Source of the DNA: an uncultured Candidatus Saccharibacteria bacterium
GTDB lineage: Bacteria > Patescibacteriota > UBA1384 > CAILIB01
Direction of reading: 5' to 3'
Assembly (NCBI GenBank): GCA_964593885.1
Contig: CAZQKK010000002.1
Location: 84,363 to 148,362 of the forward strand
Length of the DNA: 64,000 nucleotides
Under the pieces are notes generated by a model that had not been told where the DNA came from, made no database searches, and saw nothing but the letters and a program-made list of their open reading frames with translations. This document shows positions 1 to 63,994 of this stretch, one piece after another (position 1 is the stretch's first letter; each line of letters begins with the position of its first letter). The translations under genes and the position numbers were made by a program.

Positions 1-227
1 TCCACGATGAGGTTGAGAAGTACGGTGAGGCTGCTCGGATGCTCTTTACCGTGAAGCCTGGTGTTACCGGTTTGTGGCAAGTTTCAGGCAGGAACGATAC
101 CACCTTCGCCGAGAGAATTCAGCTTGATATTAGGTACATCGAGAACTGGAACCTATTCTGGGACCTCCTCATCATGATCAAAACAGTAAGCGTATTCATT
201 CCTAAGCGCGGAAAAGGAGCCTACTAG
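1..227 (+). CDS. Sugar transferase, C-terminal fragment (polyprenyl glycosylphosphotransferase, WbaP/EpsL-like). The 5' end is cut by the window edge.
   Basis: An in-frame read from nt 3 gives ...HDEVEKYGEAARMLFTVKPGVTGLWQVSGRNDTTFAERIQLDIRYIENWNLFWDLLIMIKT. The GLWQVSGR / R-x-D / IENWSL-like C-terminal motifs are those of bacterial sugar transferases. Confidence 0.6.
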   Translation, partial: HDEVEKYGEAARMLFTVKPGVTGLWQVSGRNDTTFAERIQLDIRYIENWNLFWDLLIMIKTVSVFIPKRGKGAY

Positions 228-1336: not shown

Positions 1337-1384
1337 CCAAGCAGTTCTAATCTGTGGTAGACTACTTTGGTAAGGGGCCCTTAG

Positions 1385-3517
<2,133 letters not shown>

Positions 3518-13806: not shown

Positions 13807-13825
13807 GTAAGCGCAAACCCTACTC

Positions 13826-16800: not shown

Positions 16801-17563
16801 AGAGGATATGCTCGTTACCATCCTTTCAGACAAGTCTGATTCACAGCTGGTGCATGTGCCAAAGGGCTACACCGTTGTGGTACAGGCTAAGGACAAGGTT
16901 GCTCCTAAGGACATCCTTGCTGAGTCAAAAGAGGGACGAAGTCTCCGCGCTACCCTCGCTGGTGTTGTCTCAATTGAAGAAGGCAAGGTAATTGTTACCG
17001 CCCACGAGACAGCCACCCGTGAGTACACCATTAGCAATAGCACCTCACTCAAGGTTGAGAACGGGGACGTTGTTACTAAGGGACAGGCGCTCACCGAAGG
17101 TCACCTTGACCTCCAGCAGCTCCTGTCACTCACCGGAAGAAAGGGTGTTGAGCGTTACATCGTCAACGAGGTACAGAGCATCTACTCTTCACAGGGTCAA
17201 ACCATTCACAACAAGCACATCGAGATTATCATCCGCCAGATGCTGTCAAAGGTGCAGGTTGTGGCTGCAGGTAACAGTGAGTACATTAGCGGTCAGACCA
17301 TCGAGCAAACAGACTTCCGTGCTGCTGACAAAGCAGGCCACACGGTTGAAGCTGACCAGCAGCTCCTCGGTATTACCCGTATCTCACTTCGCACCAAGAG
17401 CTTCCTCTCAGCCGCTTCATTCCAGGAAACTACCAGCGTTCTCATTGACGCTGCCGTCCAAGGAAAGCGTGATGAGCTAAGGGGCTTGAAAGAGAACGTG
17501 ATTATTGGTAAGCTCATTCCTGCTGGAACTGGCTACCAGCAAGAAGAAGCCAGTTCTAACTAA
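13826..17563 (+). CDS. rpoC: DNA-directed RNA polymerase beta' subunit.
   Basis: Zn-finger CYCGKYKSIRYKGVICDKCGVEV, catalytic NADFDGDQMAVH, and a trigger loop. Confidence 0.97.
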   Translation: MKTQEYSEQSNDFNAVQLRVASPDTILSWSHGETLKPETINYRTQKPERDGLFCERIFGPTQDYKCYCGKYKSIRYKGVICDKCGVEVTKSFVRRVRMGHIDLAVPVAHIWYVQGVPSVLGMLLDMSVSELEKIIYFAAYVILDVNEDIRKEALEQLEGEFKELRAALLDNKSASEVTGDALIRLQQVEADYKEAKGELTSLAACTVISEATYHDLSLRYGAIIKVGIGAEAIRDLLKSVKLEEGIVRLKVEADNASPLQRRKAIRRLKLYNDLHKAQISPEWLVLYRLPVIPPDLRPMVQLDGGRFAASDLNDLYRRVLNRNNRLKKLLNSGAPEVITRNEKRMLQEAVDALVDNNARRGKAAAAATGLKRKLKSLSDMLRGKQGRFRQNLLGKRVDYSGRSVIVVGPNLKLHQCGLPKMMALELFKPFLIGRLINGGYVHNVKNATRLIEQGESFIWDILEDITKDHFVLLNRAPTLHRLGIQAFQPVLIEGKSIQIHPLVCTAYNADFDGDQMAVHVPLSKAAQKEAGSIMLASHNLLKPASGEVIVSPTKDMILGCYYMTQLNADQKGAGRSFSSQDEAIMAYDAEVVEFLAPIKVLINGEMLETTVGRIMFNQIVPEALGYQNTVMDKKGVAKVIARSFEELGTEVTAQFVDDLKNIGFTYAERSGITFALSDIVIPDSKDAVLDKADAAVDEIDKQYRRGLITKEEQYVKTVEIWLDASKVLETDVIKGFTEKNPIMTIFKSGARGTMTNLNQIAGMKGLVANPSGAIIEIPLKNNFKEGLSVFEYFISTHGSRKGRADTALRTSDAGYLTRRLVDVAQDVVVAETDCGSNEGVTLYKSDELQFVDKFEDSLLGRFTVGEQAGVKANTFIDEEVARKLAVQDEVIVRSPLYCHSSWGICQHCYGKNLASGLLVEHGEAVGIIAAQAIGEPGTQLTMKTFHMGGVAQTGGDITAGLPRVEELFEARSPKTPAIMAEIDGKVRIEERPEDMLVTILSDKSDSQLVHVPKGYTVVVQAKDKVAPKDILAESKEGRSLRATLAGVVSIEEGKVIVTAHETATREYTISNSTSLKVENGDVVTKGQALTEGHLDLQQLLSLTGRKGVERYIVNEVQSIYSSQGQTIHNKHIEIIIRQMLSKVQVVAAGNSEYISGQTIEQTDFRAADKAGHTVEADQQLLGITRISLRTKSFLSAASFQETTSVLIDAAVQGKRDELRGLKENVIIGKLIPAGTGYQQEEASSN

Positions 17564-48285: not shown

Positions 48286-51126
48286 CTACTCTGCAACCAC
48301 AAAGGAGACGAGCTTGCCTATTACCACAATGGTACGGGTAACCTGCTTGCCGGTAAGCTGCTGCTGGACTGCAGGATCAGCCTTCACAATGGCTTCAATC
48401 TTGGCTTGGTCTGTGATGCGAGCATCAACTTGTAGCTTTGCACGTACCTTGCCGTTAACCTGCACCACGTAAGTTGCCACGTCCTGCTGGAGGTAGTCCT
48501 CAACGTAGGTAGGCCACGTCTGTAGTGAGATGAGGCCGCTGCCGCCGGTGATCTGCCAGAGCTCTTCGGTAATGTGTGGGGCAAGGGGCGAAAGGAGCTT
48601 GAGGATGTTCTGGTACCCAGTGATGCTCATTGAGCTCAACTCCATCAGGGCGTTAACGCTCTCCATGAGGGTAGAAACCGCAGTATTGAAAGAGCACGCT
48701 TGGATATCTTCGCCCACCTTCTTGATGGCAGCGTGGACAACCCGGTTCTCATCAGCTGAAGCGTTTGGATCAGTTGCCTTTTCTTGGAGACGCCACACCT
48801 TTTCAAGGAACCTGCGCGATCCAATGATACCCTTGGTGTCCCATGGCTTTTCAAGCTCAAAAGGTGCCATGAAGAGCTCGTAGAGCCTTAGGGTGTCTGC
48901 GCCAAACTCAGTAATCACATCGTCTGGGTTAATCACGTTACCCTTAGACTTGGACATCTTCTGGTGGTCTGGACCCAGGATCATACCCTGGTTACGCAAC
49001 TGGGTGAAAGGCTCATCAAAGCAAATCATGCCCTCGTCAAAGAGTACCTTGGTGAAGAACCTGGCGTAGAGGAGGTGGAGAACCGCGTGCTCAGCGCCAC
49101 CAACGTAGGTATCAACCGGCAGCCAGCGCTGCACCGCTTCTCTGTTAAAAGGACCATCAGTGTACGAAGGGTCCGGGAACCTGAGGTAGTACCAGCTTGA
49201 ACAGACAAAGGTGTCCAGGGTATCAACCTCACGGGTGAGCTGCTGCTTGGTAGTTGGGTCTGTGTAACGTTGCCACTCGTGGGCTTCGGCGAGGGGAGAT
49301 GTACCCGTTGGCTTGAAGTCTACGTTCATGGGAAGCTCTACCGGCAAGTCTGCATCGTCAACCAGAACTTCGCTCCCATCCTCAGTGTAGGCAACGGGAA
49401 TTGGAGCGCCCCAAAATCTCTGGCGCGAAACCAGCCAGTCGCGGAGACGGTAGGTGGTAACCATTTCGCCTCCAGCAAGCTTGGCAATATCGCCCGCTGC
49501 TTCCATAGAAAGCTTGCCATCAAAGTCTCCTGAGTTGGTGAGAGGTCCATGCTCTGAGTACGGCTGGAAGCCGTCTTTCAACCAGGCGAGGGCAAACTTG
49601 TGGGTTTCTGGTGTAAGGAAGCTTGGTAGCTCTGCGGCACTAAGCCAGCACAAGTTGTGACGTGATGCCTCGTGATCCTCAATGGCGTCTTTTTCTTCAT
49701 CCTTAAGCTGCACCAGGTAGACGTGGCCACGTACCAGCTTGTTTGTCTGCTTTGGGAGGTGGTAGAAGAGACCATCAATCACTCCAAGCTTCTGGGAGAT
49801 CTCGGCGTTGCGGTAGCCGGTTTCCTCGTGAATTTCCTTGAGTACCGTTTCCTCTGGGGTAACTCCTGGGTCAATGGTTCCGGTTAGCAAGGTTTTTGCT
49901 CCCCAGGCACTCTCTTTCCAGTCTAGGCCGAGGTACTTCTCCTCAGTTGGGTGTTTAACAAAGACAATGACACTCTCCCCAGTAACCACTGGTTGATCGG
50001 GGCGATACTTAGCAGGCTCAGTTTCTTGAACCAAGCGAGGAGCGACAACCTGCACAACGGGCAGTGAAAACACTTTGGCAAAAGCAAAGTCTCGCTCATC
50101 GTGGGCAGGGACCGCCATGATGGCGCCGGTTCCGTAGGTTGCGATGACGTAATCTGCCGTCCAAATAGGAATCTGTTGCTTGGAGAGGGGATGCACAGCG
50201 TATGAACCAGTGAAAACGCCAGACTTTTCCTTGCTGAGGAACTGCCGCTCAAGCTCTGACTTCTTTGAGGTCTGCTCTCGGTACTGCTTCACCGCAGCAA
50301 CTTGCTCAGGAGTAGTGAGCGAATCTACCAGCGAGTGTTCTGGGGCGATCACTAGGTACGTGGCGCCGTAGAGGGTATCAGGACGGGTGGTAAAGACTTC
50401 AATCTTTTCAGAAGATCCTGCTACCTCAAACCAAATCTTTGCCCCTTCAGATTTGCCAATCCAGTTTCGCTGCATGGTCTTGATCTTCTCTGGCCAATCA
50501 ACCCTATCAAGTCCTTCAAGGAGGCGCTCTGAGTAATCGGTAATCTTGAAGTACCACTGCTTAAGTTGGCGCTGGATGACTTCAGTGCCGCATCGCTCAC
50601 ACTTCCCGGATACTACCTGCTCGTTAGCAAGCACGGTTTGGCAGCTTGGACACCAGTTCACCATACCGTCTTTGCGGTAGGCCAGGCCCTTCTTGTAGAG
50701 CAGCTTGAAGAGCCACTGGGTCCAGCGGTAGTAGCTTGGGTCTGACGACGCTAGCTCGTGCTCCCAGGCGAGGCCAATACCCGCCTGCCTAAACTGACGC
50801 TTGAACTCTTGAATGTTCTGTTTGGTGGTGATGGAAGGATGAACACCTGTTTTGATGGCATAGTTTTCCGCTGGCAAGCCAAAAGAGTCCCAACCCATGG
50901 GGTGGAGAACATTCTTGCCATCCATTCTGGCTTTACGCGATAGGACGTCGGTACCGGTGTAACCAAGGATGTGCCCCACGTGGAGACCACTACCGGAAGG
51001 GTAGGGGAACATGTCCAGAATGTAGGCCTTTTCGGCATGAGTATCGGCTGATGGCTCAAAGACACGGGAATCTTCCCATACCTGCTGCCATTTCGGCTCT
51101 ACCTCGAGGTGATCGTAGCGTTTCAT
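48286..51126 (-). CDS. leuS: Leucine--tRNA ligase carrying an internal Nudix-like domain insertion. The ATG at 51126 was chosen; the track ORF extends 63 codons upstream.
   Basis: HIGH as HVGHILGY, editing TTRPDT, AVPAHDERDFAFAK, YRLRDWLVSRQRFWG, KMSKSKGN. Confidence 0.95.
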   Translation of the reverse strand: MKRYDHLEVEPKWQQVWEDSRVFEPSADTHAEKAYILDMFPYPSGSGLHVGHILGYTGTDVLSRKARMDGKNVLHPMGWDSFGLPAENYAIKTGVHPSITTKQNIQEFKRQFRQAGIGLAWEHELASSDPSYYRWTQWLFKLLYKKGLAYRKDGMVNWCPSCQTVLANEQVVSGKCERCGTEVIQRQLKQWYFKITDYSERLLEGLDRVDWPEKIKTMQRNWIGKSEGAKIWFEVAGSSEKIEVFTTRPDTLYGATYLVIAPEHSLVDSLTTPEQVAAVKQYREQTSKKSELERQFLSKEKSGVFTGSYAVHPLSKQQIPIWTADYVIATYGTGAIMAVPAHDERDFAFAKVFSLPVVQVVAPRLVQETEPAKYRPDQPVVTGESVIVFVKHPTEEKYLGLDWKESAWGAKTLLTGTIDPGVTPEETVLKEIHEETGYRNAEISQKLGVIDGLFYHLPKQTNKLVRGHVYLVQLKDEEKDAIEDHEASRHNLCWLSAAELPSFLTPETHKFALAWLKDGFQPYSEHGPLTNSGDFDGKLSMEAAGDIAKLAGGEMVTTYRLRDWLVSRQRFWGAPIPVAYTEDGSEVLVDDADLPVELPMNVDFKPTGTSPLAEAHEWQRYTDPTTKQQLTREVDTLDTFVCSSWYYLRFPDPSYTDGPFNREAVQRWLPVDTYVGGAEHAVLHLLYARFFTKVLFDEGMICFDEPFTQLRNQGMILGPDHQKMSKSKGNVINPDDVITEFGADTLRLYELFMAPFELEKPWDTKGIIGSRRFLEKVWRLQEKATDPNASADENRVVHAAIKKVGEDIQACSFNTAVSTLMESVNALMELSSMSITGYQNILKLLSPLAPHITEELWQITGGSGLISLQTWPTYVEDYLQQDVATYVVQVNGKVRAKLQVDARITDQAKIEAIVKADPAVQQQLTGKQVTRTIVVIGKLVSFVVAE
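49543..50043 (-). other. Nudix-hydrolase-like domain, about 135 aa, inserted in LeuRS between the AVPAHDERDFAFAKV and NSGDFDGK/YRLRDW segments.
   Basis: TGTIDPGVTPEETVLKEIHEETG aligns to the MutT Nudix box GGKIEMGETPEQAVVRELQEEVG (G-x5-E-x7-REUxEE-x-GU, with R to K and the first E to V), flanked by beta-strand-like segments VIVFVKH and HVYLVQL. Verified by reverse-complementing 49813..49881. Confidence 0.6.
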
Positions 51127-51166
51127 GCTGTTAACTATAGCAGAACTCACGTATACTGACAGGCAC

Positions 51167-51445
51167 ATGAAACCGCTCAGCCACCTCCAGCACACCCTGT
51201 TAGTTGCGATATTCCGGCACCCACACGTGCACGGGTATGTGCTGCTGGAATACGGTGCGCAGAGTAGCGTGTACGATGCCCTAAGGGCGCTTGCCGCGAG
51301 GGGTCTCGTAGACACCGTTGTCGCAGGTTCAAGTAACGCACCTCAGCGTAAAACCTACCAGATCACTAAATCTGGGCGAAGCTACCTAGGTGACGGGAGT
51401 GCCCCAACGGAAGCCAGACTCACTCACTACGGAACACCTACCTGA
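51167..51445 (+). CDS. Small winged-helix transcriptional regulator, PadR-like.
   Basis: LLVAIFRHPHVHGYVLLE...YDALRALAARGLVD...QRKTYQITKSGRSYL. Divergent from leuS. Confidence 0.35.
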   Translation: MKPLSHLQHTLLVAIFRHPHVHGYVLLEYGAQSSVYDALRALAARGLVDTVVAGSSNAPQRKTYQITKSGRSYLGDGSAPTEARLTHYGTPT

Positions 51446-53583: not shown

Positions 53584-53690
53584 GGCCACATTCCAAATCA
53601 CCCAACCGGGTGATTTTTTGCTGCAATCTTTACCCGGAACCAACTTTTTGCAAATATGTGCGAAACAGGAAGACCTGTTTCGGGAAACGT

Positions 53691-54035
53691 ATGGAAGAAC
53701 TGATTGGCAAAAGCCTCGAAGAGTACAGAATAGAAACCTGGTTCGAGCTCAGGCTTGCAACAGGTGAAACCGGTCACAGGGTTGCCGGCTACTTCACCGA
53801 TAGCCACCTGGCTGCGGCCTCTGGGAAAGGAAAGGGCTGGTACGGCAGCAGTGGCTCTGTTGAGAAAGCGCTCGTGCTCACCAAGGATGGGAAGACGGGA
53901 TTCCTCGTCGGTCACTCGCCTGTAGCTGGCATCAAGCTCTCTGACGAAGCCTCCCTACGTGATGCCGCAACCGCTCACGCACGTAGCAAGCTCAGTGAAC
54001 ACGAACTCGTGCTCCTCGGCCTCACCCAACCATGA
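53691..54035 (+). CDS. Hypothetical protein.
   Basis: ORF only; Gly-rich GKGKGWYGSSGSVEKALVLTKDGKTGFLVGHSPVAG. No family recognised. Confidence 0.25.
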   Translation: MEELIGKSLEEYRIETWFELRLATGETGHRVAGYFTDSHLAAASGKGKGWYGSSGSVEKALVLTKDGKTGFLVGHSPVAGIKLSDEASLRDAATAHARSKLSEHELVLLGLTQP

Positions 54036-54107
54036 AGAAGGTTTCATCTCAACTACCACGCATGTGGTAGTTTTTTCTTTCTGAACAACTGTACGAAAAA
54101 TCGCCAC

Positions 54108-54500
54108 CTAGGTAGGTAGCGATTTGAGAATCTCAGGGACGATTACCCTGAACAAGGTGATTGTCACCATCACGCACGGGATGATGGTCCCGAGGAGGAC
54201 AAATGCCTTAGCCTTGCCAGTGCTCAGGTGGTACCCGTGTTTCCAGGAGAAGAAGACGAATACATTGATGGCAATCTGGATGAGGCCAGCCAGGAGGTTT
54301 AGTCCTGTAAATAGGTGGATGACGTTTGCCAGGATGAAGAAGGTAAACCCCATCACTCCAGAGACAACCATCAAGAGACGCACAGTTTGCAGTTCTTTTT
54401 TCATGGTTTTCTGGAGCGAAGCAACCCTCACTCCCTCAAAATCGGGGGAATTGTACCACAAAAGTGCCAAAATGTCAATCTGGTACAATCCTGATGCCAT
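54108..54500 (-). CDS. Hypothetical membrane protein, 4 TM helices.
   Basis: Four hydrophobic helices. Confidence 0.35.
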   Translation of the reverse strand: MASGLYQIDILALLWYNSPDFEGVRVASLQKTMKKELQTVRLLMVVSGVMGFTFFILANVIHLFTGLNLLAGLIQIAINVFVFFSWKHGYHLSTGKAKAFVLLGTIIPCVMVTITLFRVIVPEILKSLPT

Positions 54501-54607
54501 GAAAAACCCAGAGTCATGCTCTGGTTAGGAAAGGGAAGGCAAGTAGTTCTATAGTTACCCGTTAACGTTCATTTGACATATCCCCTATGGGGGGATATTA
54601 TTTGAGC

Positions 54608-54874
54608 ATGCCATACACACCAAAAGACACCAAGGAACGCATTACCCACCGCTACAAAATCGTACGCGGGCACCTTAATAAGATTATTGAGATGCTTGAT
54701 AACGACGTTTACTGCATGGACATCCTGCACCAATCAAAGGCTGTACAGAAAGCTCTCCAGCAGGTAGATGCCCTCCTCTTGGAGCAACACCTGAAGACAT
54801 GTGTGCTCGATGCCGCAAAGGCAGGAAATGCTGAGGATTCACTGGCTGAGATACTAGAAATCTTTAAAAAGTAA
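54608..54874 (+). CDS. csoR: CsoR/RcnR-family metal-sensing repressor, copper-type ligands.
   Basis: RGHLNKIIEMLDNDVYCMDILHQSKAVQKAL...EQHLKTCV gives the C-H-C ligand pattern of CsoR. It is the first gene of the copper cluster. Confidence 0.75.
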   Translation: MPYTPKDTKERITHRYKIVRGHLNKIIEMLDNDVYCMDILHQSKAVQKALQQVDALLLEQHLKTCVLDAAKAGNAEDSLAEILEIFKK

Positions 54875-54884
54875 GGGAAGCACC

Positions 54885-55928
54885 ATGCCTACCATTTGGC
54901 TTGCGTTTATCACTGGCCTAACAACGGGTGGACTTTCTTGCCTCGCAGTCCAAGGTGGCTTACTTGCTAGCACCTTAGCTCAGGAAGTAGAGCAGCAAGT
55001 TTCACAGAAGAAAATTGTTTCCAGCCTCATTGTCTTTCTTACTAGTAAGCTAGCTGCGTACACGCTTCTTGGCTTTTTTCTCGGGTGGCTTGGGACGATG
55101 ATCCAAATTACGCCATACATGCGCGCCGGCCTCCAAATAGCAATTGGAGTATTCATGATTGGGATGGCACTACGGATGCTGAATATTCACCCAATATTCC
55201 GTTATTTCATCATCGAACCACCAAAATCTGTCACAAGATTCATCAGAAAGTTTGCAAAAAAGAGTGATGGTAATTTAGTGAGTGCAGGATTTCTCGGGGT
55301 CCTCACGGTACTCATTCCGTGTGGCATCACCCAGGCTGTAATGGTCACTGCTCTAGGTACTGGCAGTCCAATGCAGGGTGCGGCCATCCTCTTTGCCTTT
55401 GTACTGGGAACTAGTCCCATATTCTTTATTCTCGCGTACCTTGCAACACGATTGGGCGAAAAGCGTAATAGTCAGTTTACGAAAGTCGCCGCAGTGTTCG
55501 TACTCCTCTTGGGACTAGTCTCACTAGAAGGAGGTCTCAATCTTGCAGGCTCACCAGTCTCGTATGCTCAGTTTAAGAGCTCCATAGTTTCGTACAAGCC
55601 TGATATCAGACCACAGCAAAGTGAGAACGTTACAACAACTCCTACCGCAACACCAGCAGAAGGTAATACCGTAACAATTACTGCTGATGGCTACAACGGC
55701 TACCAGCCCACAAAAACGGTCGCCAAAGCAGGAGAACCCATCAAACTAATTATCACCAGTAAGGACCTCTATAGCTGTGCCTCAGCATTTGTTATCCCCA
55801 AATTGAAGATCCAAAGGAGCCTACCCCCAGACGGAACAACCACAATAGATATCCCTGCCCAACTTGCAGGCACCATTTCGTACAGCTGCACCATGGGCAT
55901 GTACCGAGGAAGTATTACCGTTCAATAG
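54885..55928 (+). CDS. Membrane protein with an N-terminal DsbD/CcdA/MerT-like permease region fused to a C-terminal cupredoxin-like domain.
   Basis: TM1 AFITGLTTGGLSCLAVQGGLLAS, compare CcdA AFLAGLLSFLSPCVLPLLP. C-term TITADGYNGYQPTKTVAKAGEPIKLIITSKDLYSCASAFVIPKL...GTISYSCTMGMYRGSITVQ is a cupredoxin-like beta-sandwich with Cys/Met ligand candidates. Confidence 0.5.
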   Translation: MPTIWLAFITGLTTGGLSCLAVQGGLLASTLAQEVEQQVSQKKIVSSLIVFLTSKLAAYTLLGFFLGWLGTMIQITPYMRAGLQIAIGVFMIGMALRMLNIHPIFRYFIIEPPKSVTRFIRKFAKKSDGNLVSAGFLGVLTVLIPCGITQAVMVTALGTGSPMQGAAILFAFVLGTSPIFFILAYLATRLGEKRNSQFTKVAAVFVLLLGLVSLEGGLNLAGSPVSYAQFKSSIVSYKPDIRPQQSENVTTTPTATPAEGNTVTITADGYNGYQPTKTVAKAGEPIKLIITSKDLYSCASAFVIPKLKIQRSLPPDGTTTIDIPAQLAGTISYSCTMGMYRGSITVQ

Positions 55929-55935
55929 CAACGCT

Positions 55936-56157
55936 ATGACTACAAAAACCTACAGAGCACCCACGATGCACTGCACCGCTTGTGTGATGGTCATCGAAGG
56001 ACTTGAAGATGACGTGCCTGGCATAGAACACGTTGAAGCAAGCTTGAAGCGACTTGAGGTGAGGGTAACTTTTGATGAATCAAAACTGCAAGAAACAGCA
56101 GTTATCGAAGCAGCCTACAGAGAAGGCTATGTACTCATCCCAATAACCAGCAACTAA
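55936..56157 (+). CDS. copZ: Copper chaperone CopZ-like (HMA domain).
   Basis: TMHCTACVMVIE carries the MxCxxC motif. The ATG at 55936 was confirmed, just after the stop of the preceding gene. Confidence 0.8.
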   Translation: MTTKTYRAPTMHCTACVMVIEGLEDDVPGIEHVEASLKRLEVRVTFDESKLQETAVIEAAYREGYVLIPITSN

Positions 56158-56169
56158 CTAGGAAACACA

Positions 56170-56544
56170 ATGAAGAGCAACCAAAGCATACTGTACGGAA
56201 TCATTGGCCTACTTGCAGGCGTAATTCTAACCGGTGCCATCATGAGCTTCAGTGGCAACACAACAAGGCATGGTTCAGGAAGCATGATGGATGAGAGTAG
56301 TGATCACATGGATATGTCGATGAATGATATGGCAAAGGAACTAAAAAATAGGACAGGCGATAACTTCGACAAGGCGTTTCTTGAAATGATGATTGACCAC
56401 CACCAAGGTGCTGTTGATATGGCCAAGGAGGCACAGAAGAACGCCAAGCACCAGGAATTGAAAGCAATGTCGAACGAAATTATTTCTGCCCAGGAAAAAG
56501 AGATTGCCCAAATGAAAGCTTGGCAAAAAGAGTGGGGATACTAA
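56170..56544 (+). CDS. DUF305-family protein (copper-resistance associated), anchored by an N-terminal TM helix.
   Basis: FDKAFLEMMIDHHQGAVDMAKEA...ELKAMSNEIISAQEKEIAQMKAW, the DUF305 HH-containing helical repeat. Confidence 0.7.
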   Translation: MKSNQSILYGIIGLLAGVILTGAIMSFSGNTTRHGSGSMMDESSDHMDMSMNDMAKELKNRTGDNFDKAFLEMMIDHHQGAVDMAKEAQKNAKHQELKAMSNEIISAQEKEIAQMKAWQKEWGY

Positions 56545-58905
56545 ATGGATACTCTACTCGTAACACTTACTGGACTTGCGAGTATCGGCTTTGTCTACTG
56601 GTTTTTCTTGATGCGCAGAGATACTACAACAACTACACATACTCATGGGGAAACCATCCCACAAGAGGGTAACGTAGCAAGCCTGCAAAAAGAGGTACTA
56701 CTCCTAAACGGAATGCACTGTGCCAGCTGCGTTAGGTTGATTGAAAAGTCACTGAGTAAACTTCCTGGAGTTACCGGGGCGACCGTTAACCTTGCAACTG
56801 AAAAGGCAATGGTGAACTACGACAGTACTACATGTTCAGTGTCAGACATGAAACGCGCCGTAGAAAGCATTGGGTATGGGGTAAGAGAAGAAGCTTCAGA
56901 GGAGAAGGAACAGGCGAAACGTACCGCCGAGCTTTCTGACTTGAGAAGTAAAGTTATTATCAGTGCAATTTCTGGGGCTCTACTACTCTGGGGAACGTTT
57001 CCAGGCCTCATGGAAACTGCACCAGCTTTCTTACGCAACTTTTACATCCAACTTCTCCTAGCTACACCTGTCCAAATCTGGGCGGGCTGGGGATTCTACC
57101 GTAGTGCCTGGATATCACTGAAGCACCGTACCGCCAATATGGACACGCTCATTGGCATTGGCACGACGGTTGCTTATGTTTACTCAGCTACGTTAACGTT
57201 TTTCCCAGGTATCGTTGAAGGCACGGGTATCAGTATGATGCCGTACTTTGATGTTGGGGTGATTGTGATCGCACTCATTTTGCTCGGACAACTCTTTGAA
57301 AAACAGGCACGTAGCCGCACCTCTGACGCAATCAAGAAACTGATTGGATTACAGGCGAAAACAGCGCGTGTGGTACGAGATGGGAGAGAAATCAATTTAC
57401 CAATTGAACAGGTAGTGATTGGTGACATTATCGTTGTACGGCCTGGTGAAAAGATTCCAGTTGATGGAGTTCTCATTGAAGGCTCCTCAAGTATTGATGA
57501 GTCTATGCTCACCGGCGAAAGCCTTCCGGTGGACAAAAAAACCGGAGACGCCGTTGTCGGAGCAACACTGAATAGAACTGGAAGTTTTCAGATGCGAGCT
57601 GAGAAAATTGGTAGCGATACCATGCTCTCGCAAATCATCTCACTGGTTGAAGCAGCACAGGGATCAAAAGCGCCAATCCAGCGCCTTGCAGACACCATTT
57701 CCTCGTACTTCGTCCCAGTAGTTATCATGGTGTCAATTGCTACGTTTGTACTCTGGTTTGACCTTGGACCAAGTCCAGTACTAACTTTTGCAATTCTGAA
57801 CATGATTGCCGTGCTCATCGTTGCCTGTCCCTGTGCAATGGGCTTGGCCACCCCAACAGCAATTATGGTAGGTACCGGAAAGGGAGCAGAGCGGGGAATC
57901 CTGATAAAAAGTGCCGAGGCCCTGGAAATTGCCCACAAAGTTACCACAATCATTTTTGACAAGACGGGCACCCTCACCCATGGTAAGCCAGTGGTCACAG
58001 ATATCCACGTAGAGGATGGTTTTAGCGAAAACGACGTACTAGGCGCAGCAACATCCATTGAGAAAGGCTCTGAACACTCTCTAGCTGAGGCAATCGTAAA
58101 GTATGGTGAGGAGAAGTATGTTGAAGCTAAGAAAGTTGAACACTTTGCCGCAATTCCAGGACACGGCGTTGAGGGGACCATTGATGGGATTCAGGTACTC
58201 CTTGGTAATCGTAAGCTTATGACGAAACGTGATATCCAAGGATTTGATACTGTAGATACCATGGCTCGAGTTGAAAAACTAGAGACTAGTGGAAAGACAG
58301 TTATGTTTGTCAGTATGGGCTCAACGTACGCAGGACTCATCGCCGTGGCAGATACGGTCAAAGAGTCCGCCGCCCTTGCCGTTGAGAAGCTACAGTCCAT
58401 GGGAATTGAAACTTACATGCTTACCGGCGACAACGAGCGCACCGCTAGAGCTATCGCCTCGCAAGTGGGAATCACACACGTCCTAGCTGAAGTACTCCCT
58501 CAGGATAAAGAACGTGAGGTGCGAAAGCTCCAAGCGAAGGGGTGCACGGTGGCAATGGTGGGCGACGGTATTAACGACGCACCCGCCTTAGCAGCAGCCG
58601 ACGTTGGGATTGCGATGGGCACTGGCACTGACGTTGCGATAGAAGCTGCTGACATCACCCTAATCTCAAAGGACATGCAGGCAGTTGCTTCAGCAATTAC
58701 GCTGAGTAAAAAGACAATGAAGACAATTAAAATGAACCTCTTCTGGGCATTTGCCTACAATGTTATTCTCATACCCGTTGCAGCAGGACTACTCTACCCA
58801 TTTCTTGGCCTACTCATGAACCCAATCTACGCCTCGGCAGCCATGGCCCTAAGCTCTCTATCAGTAGTAACCAACTCACTCCTCCTGAAACGTGCTGCGA
58901 TCTAG
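56545..58905 (+). CDS. copA: Copper-translocating P1B-type ATPase.
   Basis: HMA domain [12 protein letters not shown]; TGES; CPC as [11 protein letters not shown]; DKTGTLT; [10 protein letters not shown]. Confidence 0.95.
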
Positions 58906-59597
58906 TTTGATGCCTTACCAAACACTTCCCAGGTTGTGAGGGTTGTGGCGGGCAGCTCGGGAACTTTTTTGAGTAACTCTGCTTTCGTGAGTGCGTTATC
59001 TTCGCTCAGTGAAATAGCCTGCCTGCCGTTTGAGAGCATAGGATCCTTTGGGAAGTACGTAACCCCAGCTGTATACTTTGGTGAACCGTACCTCACGTCT
59101 TGGTCTTCAACCTTTGGCCAGTAGTTTGCGATATCTCCCTCAGCACTCTTCACCCTTACTAGAGCTGTCTCAGGTATTGCTTCGAGGTGGTACGTCACCT
59201 CTCTACCAGCTTGAGAAATCACAACGGTAGGGTACAGCTTACCATCTACCACGAGCGGTTGTGAGAAGGTAAACATCTCCCTGTATGGCATGCCGCTCAC
59301 AGCACCATGCAGATCGAATCGCTTTTTTACAACCTGAACAGGAAGAAGCTCAATAGAGAGGACATCACCCCGCACGGTAACAGTTGCCTTGTCAGCATCT
59401 GGCTGTGCTGCAGGAGGGAAGTATGTAGATTCAAGGAATAGGGTGACTTCCATTGCTGCACTACCTTCACGGTAGACGTGGCGCAGGTCAAATTTTGTTC
59501 TACCCCACTGAACCACTAGCTTTGCAGGCGGCACAAAAGAAATAACGACAAGTATGCCAACAAATAATCCTGCAATAAGTACTAATTTACTGATCAT
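58902..59597 (-). CDS. Hypothetical secreted or membrane-anchored protein.
   Basis: N-terminal signal anchor [21 protein letters not shown]. Convergent with copA, overlapping it by 4 nt. Confidence 0.4.
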
Positions 59598-59735
59598 TGG
59601 GGTGGTTATTCACTGTTAGTTACAGTATATCCGATATTGTGAGAAGTCTTGCGTTTTAGTGTCAGAATGAACTTCAACTATTTCTTTTGTTAATTTGACA
59701 GGTATACTTGCAGTATCGTAACTATAAATGTACGC

Positions 59736-60377
59736 ATGTCACACAACTTCTACCAGCGGTTTCTTGATGCTTGGCAGTCGCTCGATGCAATCCCAAACAT
59801 TGTTATCGTAAAACGTGAAATACAGCCTGGTGCAAGCGAAGAAGTGATCTCTAAAGCACTACAAGAACATCCGGAGATTAATCTCCCAGGATTAGTTGAT
59901 TTTTACCGCGAAGTTAACGGAGTTCACCTTGAGTGGTACATTCCGGGCGAAAATCCAAATGTCAGAGCATTTGAGGGCATGATCGATATTCAACCAATTG
60001 AAGACTTGGGCTACGGCGGAGAGTATGACAAAGATGAGTATATTTCCGAACTTTTTGGTGTAGAAAATCCTGTAGCATTTGAAAGGTTTGATATTTTTGG
60101 GTACGAAAACGAAACCGCATTTAATATCCGGCAGGGCGATGAGGCGGTAAGTCTGTTCATCCATCCTTCGGGCGATGATACAGTACTGTTGCCAGTGTCA
60201 GTACTCCAGTACGTTGATGCAGCTATTGAATCTAGAGGATACGGCTGGTGGCCATATAATCTACTTTCTACCTCAGAAGATAGCGAAAGCAGAAAAGAGT
60301 TTCTTGATTTTGCAGGAAAGTACTTTCCAGATTTTAACGCAAAATTATTTACTCCTGCGAAGAATCAGGTGAGTTAA
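59736..60377 (+). CDS. Hypothetical protein, possibly SMI1/KNR4 (SUKH)-like; AT-rich gene.
   Basis: W...SEEVISKALQEHPEINLPGLVDFYREVNGVHLEW resembles the SUKH alpha/beta N-terminal region. Local GC is about 38%, against about 52% elsewhere in the window. Confidence 0.3.
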   Translation: MSHNFYQRFLDAWQSLDAIPNIVIVKREIQPGASEEVISKALQEHPEINLPGLVDFYREVNGVHLEWYIPGENPNVRAFEGMIDIQPIEDLGYGGEYDKDEYISELFGVENPVAFERFDIFGYENETAFNIRQGDEAVSLFIHPSGDDTVLLPVSVLQYVDAAIESRGYGWWPYNLLSTSEDSESRKEFLDFAGKYFPDFNAKLFTPAKNQVS

Positions 60378-60511
60378 GATCTCAGAGTAAAGTTCTCAGA
60401 GAATCCTCGTCCTTTCCATACTTGCTTCATCTTCCCTTAAGCTACACTGAATGAAAAACCACCTGCGTACTTGCAAGTGGTTGGTAATTGTTGGAGTAGC
60501 GCTGGAAGGCC

Positions 60512-60778
60512 TTACTCAACGTACTCATCGAAGTTTTCCCGGTTCAGCTCTAGGAACTCGGCAGGAGCATTCTGAATGAAGTAGAGCATCTGCTCAAGAA
60601 CCCAACGCTTCGAACGGTTCTCGCTGTAGCATGGCGCTTCCCACAAAATGGTCTTCCGCCAACTGACCTCTTCCTCCTCAAGTACGGAAATGTCACTCTG
60701 GATAAGAGTCGCAACCTTCTCCCGCTCCTCCACTGTCCATTCAGGACTGACCTGTAGCTTTTCAACCTTAGCCATATC
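60512..60778 (-). CDS. Hypothetical protein. The MAKVEK start was chosen; the track extends upstream to 60871.
   Basis: ORF only; acidic. Confidence 0.3.
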   Translation of the reverse strand, partial: DMAKVEKLQVSPEWTVEEREKVATLIQSDISVLEEEEVSWRKTILWEAPCYSENRSKRWVLEQMLYFIQNAPAEFLELNRENFDEYVE

Positions 60779-60880
60779 GTTGTTTCGAATCCTCGAAGAC
60801 GCGGACACAATACACGTACATGCACAGAAAGTCAATGTGTTTACCCCTCGCGTTGCACCAATGCACACCAATTCGCACGC

Positions 60881-61207
60881 TCACTCGTGATCACGTAGGC
60901 TACGCCATGGCAGGTCATCGTCTGGTGGGAGACCCTTGGACTCGCGGTAGGCGCGGTAGATGAGCTCAGCGAGGAACTCAGTCCCTCCAGGCGCACTCAT
61001 GCGATCATGCAGGTAGCGCATCTTGATGAACGGTTCCATGAGGGAGAGGAAGCGACAGCGGAGTACGAGGAGGTCGCGATCAGCCTTGGGTGCACCCCTC
61101 GGGTACAGGATGGGTGGGTAGGGGTTTGGAGGGAGCTTCACCGCCTTGCCCTCCACCATGAGACAAAAAGCACCCTGCCAGTGGGGTTGCACTCTACGTC
61201 TAGGCAT
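60881..61207 (-). CDS. Hypothetical protein. The MPRRRV start was chosen; the track extends upstream to 61237.
   Basis: ORF only. Confidence 0.3.
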   Translation of the reverse strand: MPRRRVQPHWQGAFCLMVEGKAVKLPPNPYPPILYPRGAPKADRDLLVLRCRFLSLMEPFIKMRYLHDRMSAPGGTEFLAELIYRAYRESKGLPPDDDLPWRSLRDHE

Positions 61208-61253
61208 ACACACCTCCCGTTTGAACTTACCAACCACTAAGTAGCATCACTAT

Positions 61254-61583
61254 ATGCCAACACGTGAGGAACTCAAGGTAGGGCAGGAAGAGCGTATCCG
61301 CTCCTACTACCAAGCTATCTCAGCCAAGGGGAAAGAGGTGATGAGAGAGAAGCGAGCAAGGGGAGAGATCATGCACAAGGCTCCCTTGGGATACAAGAAT
61401 GCCCGTGACGAGCACGGACGGTCTATCCTCATTCCAGATCCTGAGACGTATCCTTTGGTGCAGAAGGCGAAGGAGCTGAGGGCTCAAGGGATGTCGATAC
61501 GGAAGATTTGTGTGGAGATGGAAAGACTTGGATTACGATCTCGGGAAGGCAGAGCTGTCGGCATAGGATCAATGCACAACTAA
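61254..61583 (+). pseudogene. Large serine recombinase fragment: only the 'recombinase' domain survives, with no catalytic resolvase domain.
   Basis: KAPLGYKNARDEHGRSILIPDPETYPLVQKAKELRAQGMSIRKICVEMERLGLRSREGRAVGIGSMHN matches the PfGY...EA.vVr.iF...G.s...ia..LN..G.....G..W....v..iL.N recombinase-domain pattern. The ORF is only 109 aa. Confidence 0.55.
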
Positions 61584-62296
61584 CTGATCTAAGGGGAGAG
61601 TTCCTGATCTAGCGAGCTTTACTCCATCAATAATGAAATCAAGAATACTTGTCATTTCCGCATGAGCCGCAAGCAAGTCGTTAAGTACATCCGTCGATAC
61701 AGACTTAATTTCTCTTAAAGGATTCTTGCCCTGCCTTACAGAAAGGGTAAACGAGCCATCAGCAGACTCCTTAACATCAAAGCCAGGTGAGGCGGAGTGA
61801 ACAAACTCATTTCTCATATTCCTCAATCTGGAAAGTGAAGAGCTCTGGCTGGATAGGCCATCCAGTGCTTTCACAAAGGCTTCGTTCTGGCGAACACGAA
61901 AAGAACCTCGAATAACCTGAATTTTTACATCGCTCTCTTTGAGATGAACGCCAGCAACAGCGTTAATAAGCTTGAGTAATTTATCCGAGAATGTAGCTGT
62001 CCTGAGCAGGGCGTTTTCTAAAGAGCGTCTAAGTTCATCTTCACCATCTTTAATTACGTAAAAACGCTCACTATCATCATAATCGTTTACCCACTCGTTC
62101 CCTTCTCTGCTCTTTAAATCCTTGGCAGTAAAATAGTGCAGCTGATTCCTCTTGAGATCTTTTCAGCCTCAGTCGCAAATTGACGCACATAGTATTCGTA
62201 ATCGTCGCAAGTTTTTTCTACCCCACCTAAGAGTGATGGGTATATAAAGAGAGATAGAAGTTCTTGGACCTTCTTTTGAAGAGTATTATTGTTCAT
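61569..62296 (-). pseudogene. Frameshifted hypothetical gene: a 60-aa ORF (62114..62296) continues in another reading frame as the ORF ending at 61569.
   Basis: Reading the minus strand, the MNNNTLQKK...EAEKISRG frame stops, and a different frame continues ...DLKRNQLHYFTAKDLKSREGNEWVNDYDDSERFYVIKDGE... into the 61569..61874 ORF. The gene is AT-rich. Confidence 0.35.
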
Positions 62297-62309
62297 TACT
62301 TAATAAAAA

Positions 62310-62340
62310 CAGAAACATTGGCAAACTGCCAATGTTTCTG
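62310..62340. terminator. Strong bidirectional intrinsic terminator.
   Basis: Perfect 14-bp inverted repeat cagaaacattggca / tgccaatgtttctg around loop aac, flanked by aaaaa and tttgtt. It lies 16 nt past the tRNA 3' end. Confidence 0.6.
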
Positions 62341-62356
62341 TTTGTTGCGTTCAAGT

Positions 62357-62432
62357 TGGTGGACCTTAGGGGACTCGAACCCCTTACCTCTTCCATGCCA
62401 TGGAAGCGCTCTACCAGATGAGCTAAAGGCCC
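62357..62432 (-). tRNA. tRNA-Ala, anticodon GGC, 76 nt with CCA encoded.
   Basis: Minus strand reads GGGCCTTTAGCTCATCTGGTAGAGCGCTTCCATGGCATGGAAGAGGTAAGGGGTTCGAGTCCCCTAAGGTCCACCA. The cloverleaf folds cleanly, with the G3:U70 Ala identity pair, a T-loop TTCGAGT and an anticodon loop AT-GGC-AT. Confidence 0.9.
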
Positions 62433-62486: not shown

Positions 62487-63512
62487 CTACCTAAAATCCA
62501 TGGAATCGTCCAGCCGTAAACCAGGACGCCTATCAACCACCTCCAGACTAACCGGCTCCAAGCCATCGCGCACCAAAAGTTCTGCCGCCAAGCCTATCAT
62601 CGCTCCATTGTCAGTGCAGAGTTCAAGCTTTGGCGGAACCAGGAGAGGGATACCGTACTCTGAGGCCAATTGACGCATCAGCCTCCGTAGCCTGGTGTTT
62701 GCGGCAACTCCTCCTACAAGAGAAACAGCAGCAACCTCACCGTGCTTCTCCAGTGCCATCTTCACCTTCCTGAGCAGCGAAGCCTGAGCGGCCTGCTCAA
62801 AGGCGGCACAGATGTCGCGCACGTCATCTCCTGAGAGTGGTTCCTGCTCCTTAATGAGTAACCTCACCGCATTCTTGAGGCCTGAGTAGCTGAGGTTTGG
62901 CGTATCACCCCGCATCATCGGGATGGGGAGGTGGAAGCGTGAGGTATCACCGGTAGACGCCAGTTTTGAGACAACCTGACCTCCTGGGTAGCCAAGGCCG
63001 AGCATCTTTGCCACCTTGTCGTAGGCTTCACCCAGAGCATCGTCTAGGGTTTCGCCCAGCATGTTCACGTCAGTCATGCTCCTGACTAACGCAATGTCTG
63101 AGTGCCCACCTGAAACAACCACTGCCAGGAGCGGGAATACCGGTTCTCGCCCCACAAAGACGCTGGCAACGTGCCCCAACATGTGGTTGATGGCGTAGAG
63201 AGGAACATCAAACCCCTCGGCAAGCTCCTTCGCCTTGGTGATCCCAACCTGGAGGGCTGGAGCAAGCCCAGGTCCGTAGGTGACGGCAATGGCATCAATA
63301 TCCTCAGGTGAGAGTTTTGAGCGTTTGAGGGCAAGCTGCACCACCGCGTCAATTCGCTCCGTGTGGAGACGCGCTGCCAGCATGGGCACCACACCGCCAT
63401 AGGCCTTATGGTACTTCACCTGGGACGAAATGACGTTTGAGAGAACGCTCAGACCCTCGGTAACCGCTACAGAGGTCTCATCGCAGCTGGTGTCTATCGC
63501 CAGAAACCTCAC
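62487..63512 (-). CDS. tsaD: tRNA N6-adenosine threonylcarbamoyltransferase TsaD (Kae1/Gcp family).
   Basis: MRFLAIDTSCDETSVAV...INHMLGHV...SGGVAAN. Confidence 0.9.
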   Translation of the reverse strand: MRFLAIDTSCDETSVAVTEGLSVLSNVISSQVKYHKAYGGVVPMLAARLHTERIDAVVQLALKRSKLSPEDIDAIAVTYGPGLAPALQVGITKAKELAEGFDVPLYAINHMLGHVASVFVGREPVFPLLAVVVSGGHSDIALVRSMTDVNMLGETLDDALGEAYDKVAKMLGLGYPGGQVVSKLASTGDTSRFHLPIPMMRGDTPNLSYSGLKNAVRLLIKEQEPLSGDDVRDICAAFEQAAQASLLRKVKMALEKHGEVAAVSLVGGVAANTRLRRLMRQLASEYGIPLLVPPKLELCTDNGAMIGLAAELLVRDGLEPVSLEVVDRRPGLRLDDSMDFR

Positions 63513-63994
63513 AGTGAGAGGGTACGAATGGTGCGCTGATCGTGGCTACCAGAGAGGTGAACACGCACAATAACCGCCGTATCGCCGAGCGTCCTGAAGT
63601 AGGGGAGGAGCGGCTCAGGCCACTCTACCGCCGTAACTACGCGTGGCTGAATGCGGGACCGCATGCCAACCTCGTCTGCCGTTACCTGTCCGGCGCGCCA
63701 GAGATCCATATGGACGAAGAGGCCACCGTCAAAACGGTACTCTTTCGCCAAGTTGTAGGTAGGCGAACTTACCACACTGGCGATACCCAGACCCTTGGCA
63801 ATTCCCTTGGCAAATTGGGTTTTCCCGGCTCCCATATCTCCTTCTAGCAGGAAGATGAGCGGTTTCTCAGCCAGGACGTGGTGGTACTGGGCGGCAAGCT
63901 TGCCAGCAAACTGGAGGGTTTCTTCCTCGGATGCACTTGGCACAGGTGGAGCAACCTCAGCTGAAAGCTCACCAGACCTTACAATTTCCTGCAC
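63509..63994 (-). CDS. tsaE: tRNA threonylcarbamoyladenosine biosynthesis ATPase TsaE (YjeE).
   Basis: P-loop LEGDMGAGKTQFAKGIAKGLGI followed by SPTYNLAKEY; overlaps the tsaD start by 4 nt. Confidence 0.8.
   Translation of the reverse strand: MQEIVRSGELSAEVAPPVPSASEEETLQFAGKLAAQYHHVLAEKPLIFLLEGDMGAGKTQFAKGIAKGLGIASVVSSPTYNLAKEYRFDGGLFVHMDLWRAGQVTADEVGMRSRIQPRVVTAVEWPEPLLPYFRTLGDTAVIVRVHLSGSHDQRTIRTLSL

Follow-up and report, generated by a model that had tools for sequence, protein, structure and literature searches.

The 64-kb window analysed here, that is, the whole stretch of contig CAZQKK010000002.1 under study, carries between about 60.49 and 62.36 kb a compact unit that ends at the 3' end of a tRNA-Ala gene. 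We read this segment, with a probability of about 0.68, as a worn cassette resembling the cis-mobilizable elements (CIMEs) and belonging to a family of elements of Armatimonadota in which a large serine recombinase (LSR) targets tRNA 3' ends. The window carries one such unit, made up of the open reading frames (ORFs) C, D and E, a HEPN cargo gene, a hairpin, an attachment (att) arm and an att core. It has neither an LSR nor a conjugation gene and no clear left att repeat, and the 64 kb contain none of the other backbone genes of the element family. An earlier note on this DNA had proposed a decayed integrative element with the stump of a serine recombinase. The decay is borne out by the frameshifted cargo and by the lack of a recombinase and of a left att site, but the recombinase-stump part of that proposal does not hold.

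The presumed stump is ORF E (61254..61583, plus strand), a small LSR-derived protein of 109 aa with an alpha-E helix, a beta-hairpin and a three-helix subdomain. Its match to the Pfam Recombinase profile (PF07508) is below threshold (16.9 versus 21.1 bits, profile positions 1-39 of 102), and it matches PHROG 95 'integrase' with an E-value of 1e-11 (profile positions 218-298 of 651). No match to the catalytic resolvase domain PF00239 or to the zinc-ribbon/coiled-coil domain PF13408 was obtained for ORF E, whereas the LSRs of two related loci, L014 and L032, carry all three domains (PF00239, PF07508, and PF13408). An in-frame stop lies upstream of ORF E at 61242..61244, ORF D fills the opposite strand upstream, and tblastn with nine LSRs detected no LSR catalytic domain anywhere in the window.

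ORF E is one member of a family defined in alignment A1 as proteins of 100-150 aa without a catalytic domain and with a conserved core (YYxxISAKGK..GExMHxAPLGYKNARD..GRS..DP..Y.LV..A..L...G.SIRKI). Homologues fall into 27 clusters, all of 100-144 aa and with 53-90% identity, and share a core of about 85 aa flanked by variable tails. The window protein is 53-90% identical to 26 members and keeps all 17 invariant columns; its C-terminus, without the final helix turns, is the shortest of the family, but it is otherwise complete. Scans of genome and metagenome contigs separated the small proteins from full recombinases: all matches with at least 52% identity lie in ORFs of 118-150 aa, and all matches with at most 45% identity are full LSRs of 505-538 aa. 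No relatives were found in viral contigs. The core evolves under purifying selection, with a dN/dS of 0.09-0.28 (Nei-Gojobori, 15 pairs), and identity to the adjoining LSRs, over their residues ~110-235, is 32-37%. Given this conservation, this selection and this distance from the neighbouring LSRs, ORF E is not a decaying integrase. The earlier note was thus right that a catalytic serine domain is lacking, but the gene belongs to an intact, conserved family. Judged by its sequence, it is an old, selected, stand-alone paralogue of the alpha-E helix and first recombinase subdomain.

Set beside LSRs (Bxb1, phiC31, the A118/LI integrase), ORF E aligns over LSR residues ~110-235, and the shared region comprises alpha-E, the PLGY(K) turn, the beta-hairpin and the first three-helix subdomain. 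Unlike them, it lacks the catalytic serine domain, the second half of the recombinase domain, the zinc ribbon and the coiled coil. It cannot be a recombinase itself. An AlphaFold2 model (pLDDT 82) shows a 32-residue helix, a beta-hairpin and a three-helix bundle, and the top Foldseek matches in the PDB are the Bxb1 LSR, Sin and the Listeria LI integrase-DNA complex. Since the E-values of these matches are non-significant (0.25-0.66), the structure agrees with the sequence evidence and adds little weight to it. A sequence search of the PDB with the family profile gave nothing significant.

ORF E is paired with a divergent gene, ORF D (60881..61237, minus strand, true start probably M11 at 61207), whose GC content at third codon positions (GC3) is 0.66. 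ORF D is 31% identical over 94 aa to a 100-aa gene at the same position in loci L040-L043, and as a homologue of that divergent gene it makes the D/E pair a conserved module. A promoter-like site lies in the D/E region at 61276..61249. In contexts resembling integrative and conjugative elements (ICEs), the partner of the small ORF is likewise a small minus-strand gene, of family F1 (MWLPxPT...). A search upstream of 17 small ORFs gave no conserved operator-like motif, the sole common k-mer being the start-codon region of the partner gene. Sequences similar to F1 were also noticed on the plus strand just upstream of, or overlapping, annotated LSR starts in L010 (5765..5959), L014 (7920..8081), L019 (1015..1164) and L015 (8128..8304). 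An F1-like gene may precede each LSR as well as each small ORF. On the far side of ORF D from ORF E, and in the same direction as ORF D, lies ORF C (60512..60871, minus strand, probably 60512..60775 from MAKVEK), for which a homologue search found nothing. ORFs C and D had been counted as possible AT-rich cargo, an attribution that fails: their GC3 is host-like, and ORF D is the conserved partner of the small ORF.

The anatomy of the family is best seen in the related loci, whose LSR genes stop within an opposite-strand tRNA 3' end or overlap it. This is also the case for seven distant full-length LSRs, which overlap the 3' end of a tRNA-Leu gene by 20-53 nt in convergent orientation on the opposite strand. 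In the ICE-like elements, the last ~30 codons of the LSR gene hold a mimic of the tRNA-Ala 3' end with the core TTGGTGGACCYTAG..., and the sequence at the LSR end, TTGGTGGACC(Y)TAG(T)GGAC..., is the reverse complement of the tRNA-Ala 3' end. The core together with the LSR tail recurs downstream as direct repeats of 29-63 nt that bound tandem units, namely one of 29 nt (93% identity) in L012, three copies in L013 (43 nt, 95%; 30 nt, 93%), and repeats of 63 nt (87%) in L014, 56 nt (87.5%) in L018 and 54 nt (91%) in L019. More cores are found in L010, L011, L017 (two identical 32-mers), L001 (three copies) and L040, where the unit is bounded by a 16-nt repeat of the tRNA-Ala(UGC) 3' end.

The units so delimited measure 1.4-5.6 kb and are either stacked downstream of LSR genes or solo at tRNA 3' ends. 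The small ORF marks nearly all of these cassettes. The typical order within a unit is core and tail, partner gene on the minus strand, small ORF on the plus strand, cargo, an A/T-flanked hairpin, a T-rich arm ending in GTTCA(A/C)NT (..GTTCAAGT), and the next core. The A/T-flanked hairpin precedes 17 of 17 non-LSR cores, and the six LSR-side arms are coding sequence without a hairpin. This anatomy occurs at three tRNA genes: tRNA-Ala(GGC) in the window and L001, tRNA-Glu(CUC) in L007, and tRNA-Ala(UGC) in L040 and L042. ICE-like contexts (L010, L012, L013, L014, L018, and L019/L020) follow the order relaxase and type IV coupling protein, Mrr_cat and helix-turn-helix gene, LSR, F1, small ORF, variable cargo, then ArdC and other backbone genes, and in full elements the small ORF sits at the end of the unit opposite to the position of the LSR. 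Solo small ORFs, with no LSR within 8-10 kb, are those of the window and of L001, L007, L011, L017, L023, L040 and L044.

Two further arrangements were noticed among these loci. L001 holds a 150-nt mini-segment with its own hairpin (9385..9553), set off on one side by a 13-nt copy of the tRNA-Ala 3' end and on the other by the tRNA gene; it looks like the remnant of a further, almost wholly deleted unit. The island of L015/L024 (3442..10276), from a Fimbriimonas sp. metagenome-assembled genome, has a tyrosine integrase after a tRNA-Val and also a 584-aa LSR with, after it, a decayed copy of the small ORF that has an internal stop; two recombinase types thus coexist in one island.

The right end of the window unit reproduces this anatomy. 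The tRNA-Ala(GGC) gene occupies 62357..62432 on the minus strand (ARAGORN; Rfam tRNA 62360..62432), and an Rfam scan returned nothing besides it. Its 3' end is the att core on the attB side (62357..62374, plus-strand TGGTGGACCTTAGGGGAC), homology with L001 resuming at 62356, and 17 of its 18 positions agree with the internal att core of L014. The cassette-side att arm (62344..62356) ends …GTTGCGTTCAAGT and abuts the core. The arm motif GTTCA(A/C)NT followed by TTGGTGG is also found beside cores in L001 (at 7186), L040, L007, L013 and L010, and the window arm, GTTTGTTGCGTTCAAGT, is near-identical to that of the L001 core at 7186 (GTGTTCAAGT, then TTGGTGGACC). To the left of the arm lies the terminal hairpin (62307..62343), with a perfect 17-bp stem, a 3-nt loop and A-run and T-run flanks; its folding energy is -25.4 kcal/mol (z = -7.0). 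The earlier note had recognized a perfect hairpin by the tRNA but gave it 14 bp, and the distance of 16 nt that it gave applies only if the CCA is excluded, the CCA-inclusive distance to the tRNA end being 13 nt. From the hairpin through the T-rich arm (..GTTCAAGT) to the TTGGTGG core, this right end (62307..62374) is canonical and intact.

The hairpin is the terminal hairpin of the cassette and likely a replacement terminator for the tRNA. An insertion at the tRNA 3' end would part the tRNA from its own terminator, so that the incoming hairpin would take its place, and in line with this, L001 has a different, unrelated hairpin at the orthologous tRNA. Read on the tRNA strand, and with its terminal A-T pairs taken as open, the stem runs into TTTTTATT; a generic terminator scan made no call here. 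That the hairpin closes an integrated element, as had been proposed, is upheld by the equivalent hairpin before all 17 of the non-LSR cores in related loci. As a sole explanation, the alternative that hairpin and spacer are the native trailer of the tRNA, and hence the attB arm, was rejected: the L001 orthologue has an unrelated hairpin, and in tandem arrays a hairpin-arm also precedes internal cores that do not belong to a tRNA.

The left end is much less distinct. Left ends with a second core and an LSR-tail-like sequence occur in L001, L012, L013, L014, L017, L018 and L040, but in the window no direct repeat of the tRNA 3' end, which the earlier note had suggested seeking near 59600, was found by pattern, position weight matrix (PWM) or alignment. 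A 25-mer of the tRNA-Ala 3' end searched with up to 3 mismatches had no repeat in the window, nor did a 16-mer of arm and core or a 17-mer of the LSR-tail motif have a second copy there. With a PWM built from 12 cores, even the best non-tRNA matches in the window failed to reach the maxima of shuffled sequence, and ten core-plus-tail sequences aligned locally to 53.6-61.26 kb gave no left att site. Inverted repeats flanking the HEPN gene, sought as LSR-type attL/attR arms, gave only chance-level pairs. One lead, held with low confidence, is a candidate degenerate left att site of the C-D-E-HEPN unit at 60457..60495, where a hairpin (60457..60482, with a terminator-like site called there) is followed after 5 nt by TTGTTGGA (60488..60495), a 7/8 match to the core. 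Its layout is that of the L001 junction at 7141..7193 (AATGAAAAA, hairpin, TTGGTGGA), and it sits where GC3 shifts from 0.38 in ORF B to 0.63 in ORF C. Neither the PWM nor the local alignment, each run over the entire region, singled this stretch out.

Between the small ORF and the hairpin, the window unit carries a Cthe_2314-like HEPN gene (61569..62296, minus strand; 41% GC, GC3 0.38) with a 1-nt frameshift. Minus-strand translation of 61560..62310 yields two overlapping frames, one for the N-terminal part (62114..62296) and one for the C-terminal part (61569..62162). The split that had been noted here is therefore confirmed, and the shift lies between 62114 and 62162, most likely through one base in the A4 run at 62160..62163 as the simplest site. 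The repaired product of 242 aa passes the Pfam gathering score of HEPN_Cthe2314 (PF18730) with 34.8 versus 27.1 bits. Profile searches of the hypothetical proteins of the region thus produced a family for the repaired gene but none for ORFs A-D, and PADLOC, NCBIfam and PHROGs had no matches to ORFs A-D or to the HEPN gene. A word-indexed homologue search with the HEPN gene found nothing, and an exhaustive HMMER search of 1.84 billion representative proteins found only three distant homologues (P0029-P0031), all intact and of 237-267 aa. These align on both sides of the frameshift, which identifies a single rare HEPN gene disrupted in the assembly, and R162, N163 and H167 are invariant among them, including the R-x4-H motif R162-NEFV-H167. 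The source annotation calls only an 82-aa piece of the gene (P0028). The window product thus resembles the HEPN_Cthe2314 family in its score and in its R-x4-H motif, but differs in being frameshifted and in having no partner antitoxin or minimal nucleotidyltransferase (MNT) gene. Its start codon at 62296 lies only 10 nt from the tRNA-side hairpin (62296..62307), too close for a separate promoter to fit in between. To be expressed, the gene would have to rely on transcription reading through from the tRNA, on a promoter that overlaps the hairpin, or on a leaderless transcript.

In the related units, the cargo beside the small ORF consists mostly of recognizable anti-phage genes. It includes a cyclic oligonucleotide-based antiphage signalling system (CBASS) in L010, Shedu SduA (E 1e-79) in L019, a GajB-like helicase in L018, a HamB-like helicase with a caspase domain in L013, PDC-S06 with a kinase and a PD-(D/E)XK/UvrD pair in L023, Abi_C in L014, AAA_21-DUF4435 in L044 and DUF4238 in L001; L007 has an uncharacterized 274-aa gene, with Old beside the unit. 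In most units, cargo gene and small ORF converge and overlap at the 3' end of the latter, which explains the variable C-terminal tails of the small proteins. Past the Abi_C unit, L014 also contains a minus-strand cluster (11603..17454) of two unknown genes, a gene for a 526-aa MotA/ExbB-like protein and one for a 1022-aa Tubulin_2 protein with a Cys-rich C-terminal end. PADLOC gives no match to it, and it is a candidate new defence system.

Taken together, these features fit a mechanism in which the LSR would recombine an element-borne site, consisting of arm, core and tail, with a tRNA 3' end or with its copy inside the LSR gene. Such recombination would stack units by accretion, and units without an LSR would be moved in trans. 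The window unit would have been delivered by LSR-mediated recombination at the tRNA-Ala 3' end, bringing its own terminator hairpin, and would since have been immobilized through erosion of its left att site. With the LSR coming in trans, the small protein would serve the cassette as its accessory or regulatory factor, most likely binding DNA at or near the att arms or at its own divergent promoter. Cargo would be swapped in the slot bounded by the small gene's 3' end and the att arm. Some cargo exchange within units may also occur by homologous recombination, as is suggested by mosaic small ORFs with differing breakpoints (L012 8001..8348; P0020, P0021, and P0027). The first ~55-80 codons of these ORFs are near-identical to the window gene, with ~95% nucleotide identity, before an abrupt switch to a different, more LSR-like helix-turn-helix segment. 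Without a left att site or an LSR and with a frameshifted cargo gene, the window copy is most likely fixed in place.

Several points weigh against this account. In the window, the left att core and LSR tail are not demonstrable, the best candidate being the 7/8 match, and the regions upstream of the small ORFs yielded no conserved operator-like motif. Neither an excised circle nor an empty tRNA-Ala site was seen, nor the identical unit at two places, so that mobility is read solely from the architecture. The related loci are all metagenomic contigs. Repeats of 16-63 nt in direct orientation are commoner with tyrosine recombinases, and L015 also carries a tyrosine integrase next to its tRNA-Val; the reaction is consequently assigned to the LSR by position only. 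The likeness of the modelled small protein to LSR domains is statistically weak (E 0.25-0.66). Finally, the variable breakpoints in the small ORFs of L012 and P0021 point to homologous recombination, rather than a fixed crossover, for the exchange of cargo.

The account closest to the earlier note, a classic decayed tRNA island in which 61254..61583 is the non-functional residue of the integrase and the remaining ORFs are cargo in decay, is largely refuted and now very improbable. It would explain the missing catalytic domain and partial Recombinase match, the frameshifted neighbouring gene, the AT-rich blocks, and the alignments to LSRs that extend a few codons 5' of the ATG of ORF E through a stop codon. 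A dying fragment, however, would not keep the same short architecture in more than 27 clusters of 100-150 aa with a dN/dS of 0.09-0.28, be only ~35% identical to the adjacent full LSRs, or have host-like GC3. Nor would it co-occur with intact LSRs in the same element, as the small ORF does, twice within L013. In a full element, moreover, the LSR abuts the right-hand core, and the small ORF stands near the left end with the cargo between it and that core. The variant of a classical tRNA island with a tyrosine integrase finds no integrase in 53.6-62.4 kb and no repeat of the tRNA 3' end. It is also improbable, if less so than the decayed island, that there is no site-specific mechanism at all and that prs-tRNA-Ala is a recombination hot spot where homologous swaps occur between anchors (small ORF, tRNA, and tsaD). 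The mosaic small ORFs with their variable breakpoints would suit such swaps, as would the missing left att site and the 92% identity of the small ORF between the window and L001, against 79-84% in the flanks. What they leave unexplained are the direct repeats of core and tail that bound units in about ten other loci, the hairpin-arm-core anatomy shared by the right end of the window, and the presence of the same unit at three different tRNAs together with LSR genes that overlap tRNA 3' ends.

A further rival account, unlikely though still to be reckoned with, makes the small protein a helix-turn-helix regulator of the adjacent defence gene without any role in recombination, with the LSR alone moving the units. 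Regulators of the BrxR, CapW and WYL types accompany diverse defence systems, and the small ORF likewise adjoins diverse defence cargo consistently, forms a divergent pair with a small partner gene, has a predicted fold of a helix plus a helix-turn-helix-like subdomain, and is kept in solo units without a nearby LSR (window, L001, L007, and L040). Yet its orientation is usually convergent with the cargo, which its 3' end overlaps, an unusual arrangement for a dedicated regulator; no conserved operator motif was detected upstream of it; and it retains the alpha-E helix, which in serine recombinases is a subunit interface. A bolder and rather doubtful proposal is that the small protein acts as a recombination adaptor, a directionality or recruitment factor made from the DNA-binding and dimerization parts of the recombinase. 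Through it, single-gene defence cassettes that lack a recombinase could make use of an LSR in trans and hop between the 3' ends of ICE LSR genes and chromosomal tRNA 3' ends. If true, such an adaptor system would be a serine-recombinase counterpart of the integron, specialized for anti-phage genes.

The unit forms part of a larger variable interval. Compared from prs to the tRNA with its syntenic relative L001, the window shares prs (to 53619), the small ORF (61254..61543) and the sequence from 62356 on. The small ORF is the only stretch in between that is held in common, and the variable interval is thus 8.7 kb long (53620..62356). That foreign, variable DNA lies to the left of the tRNA-Ala 3' end is upheld by this comparison, but the island, at 53.62-62.36 kb, is larger than had been claimed, and at the same place L001 keeps the small ORF but has different genes on either side, a mixed outcome for the comparison by which the note would have been refuted. 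No empty tRNA-Ala/tsaD site was found, the only syntenic relatives, L001, L003 and L004, all being occupied. The island is composite, with a copper-resistance block, the ORFan ORF B and then the C-D-E-HEPN unit. The copper-resistance block (54587..58905, plus strand) encodes a CsoR-type repressor, a DsbD_2-cupredoxin membrane protein, an HMA chaperone, a DUF305 protein and the P-type ATPase CopA. With a GC3 of ~0.47 and no counterpart in L001, it looks like a separately acquired block inside the same interval. It is followed, still within the interval, by ORF A (58902..59597, minus strand), encoding a 231-aa protein with an N-terminal hydrophobic segment. ORF B (59736..60377, plus strand; 213 aa, GC3 0.38) forms the left AT-rich block and is possibly an older cargo unit. 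Its only database match is to itself, no family matches it, and a single-sequence AlphaFold2 model was unusable (pLDDT 39).

The two dips in GC content reported at 59600..60500 and 61570..62340 exist, but the value of about 38% given for them made them too deep, the measured value being 41.4% in each against 51.0% for the whole window. They are the sole spots in the 64 kb with less than 44% GC in windows of 770-900 nt, with minima of 40.3-41.2% against a mean of 50.9% (sd 2.5%), and lie about 4 sd out. The host genes leuS, prs and tsaD have a GC3 of 0.61-0.63, and ORFs C, D and E, between the two dips, are host-like (0.58-0.66). ORF B and the frameshifted HEPN gene both stand at 0.38, and CopA and ORF A are intermediate (0.46-0.47).

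In the flanking host genes, two domain arrangements were noticed. The leucyl-tRNA synthetase (48286..51315, minus strand) apparently contains a NUDIX hydrolase domain as an insert: a Nudix-box-like GTIDPGVTPEETVLKEIHEETGY is present in the window protein, and in the L001 leuS orthologue (1..2706) precomputed Pfam annotation places PF00293 between tRNA-synt_1 segments. To the right of tRNA-Ala lie tsaD and tsaE. In L001, TsaE is fused to a Sua5/YciO/YrdC (TsaC-like) domain in a 354-aa protein (10692..11756), and the window tsaE ORF (63509..63994) reaches the region of the window edge.

The nearest described system is that of the ssrA genomic islands of Dehalococcoides. In these islands, the 3' end of the LSR gene dsiB invariably overlaps attL and ssrA; the islands form tandem stacks separated by 20-bp repeats of the ssrA 3' end, and about half of them have no integration module and have been proposed to be CIMEs (PMC3146451). 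Both systems share an LSR gene whose 3' end overlaps an att site formed by the 3' end of an opposite-strand tRNA-like gene, tandem arrays with short 3'-end direct repeats (TGGTGGA...) and a conserved arm motif beside the repeat, and many islands without an integration module. The elements described here, however, belong to Armatimonadota, target ordinary tRNA genes (Ala, Glu, and Leu) instead of tmRNA, and form units of 1.4-5.6 kb with anti-phage cargo and not reductive dehalogenases. Their ICE-like hosts also embed the att site in the coding end of the LSR itself. Whereas the DsiA protein of Dehalococcoides has a catalytic domain and no DNA-binding domain, the small protein is the opposite.

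A second parallel is provided by the tandem cassettes of the staphylococcal cassette chromosome (SCC) and SCC-like type, which are 20-70 kb long and are inserted at rlmH by CcrAB or CcrC (PMC11470126). They too are driven by LSRs into the 3' end of a conserved gene, stack in tandem, include recombinase-less cassettes moved in trans, and are enriched in anti-phage defences. They differ in their protein-coding target and their size, and no small LSR-derived hallmark protein has been described for them. The window unit also recalls CIMEs and site-specific accretion, as known for ICESt1/ICESt3 (PMC5704250), in which att-flanked elements no longer possessing genes for integration and transfer stack up beside an ICE or an integrative and mobilizable element (IME) at the 3' end of the target. 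Classical CIMEs, by contrast, depend on tyrosine integrases and have no conserved hallmark gene. Since a second att site is not demonstrable, the window copy is at best a decayed CIME. A limited literature search found no description of an LSR paralogue without a catalytic domain as the hallmark of a cassette, and the cassette system is apparently both coherent and undescribed.

The locus in the window is itself a decayed and probably immobile copy. The small LSR-derived gene, together with the hairpin-arm-TTGGTGG junction, provides a bioinformatic handle for finding new defence genes, uncharacterized examples of cargo being the 274-aa gene of L007, the MotA/Tubulin_2 cluster of L014, DUF4238 and the rare HEPN family. 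An LSR with its att site inside its own coding end, mimicking a tRNA, and an LSR paralogue without a catalytic domain are both of interest for the mechanism of LSRs and for toolkits in genome engineering. Should the architecture prove functional, it would show how a little-studied phylum shuffles single anti-phage genes, in units of 1.5-5 kb, between conjugative elements and tRNA loci.

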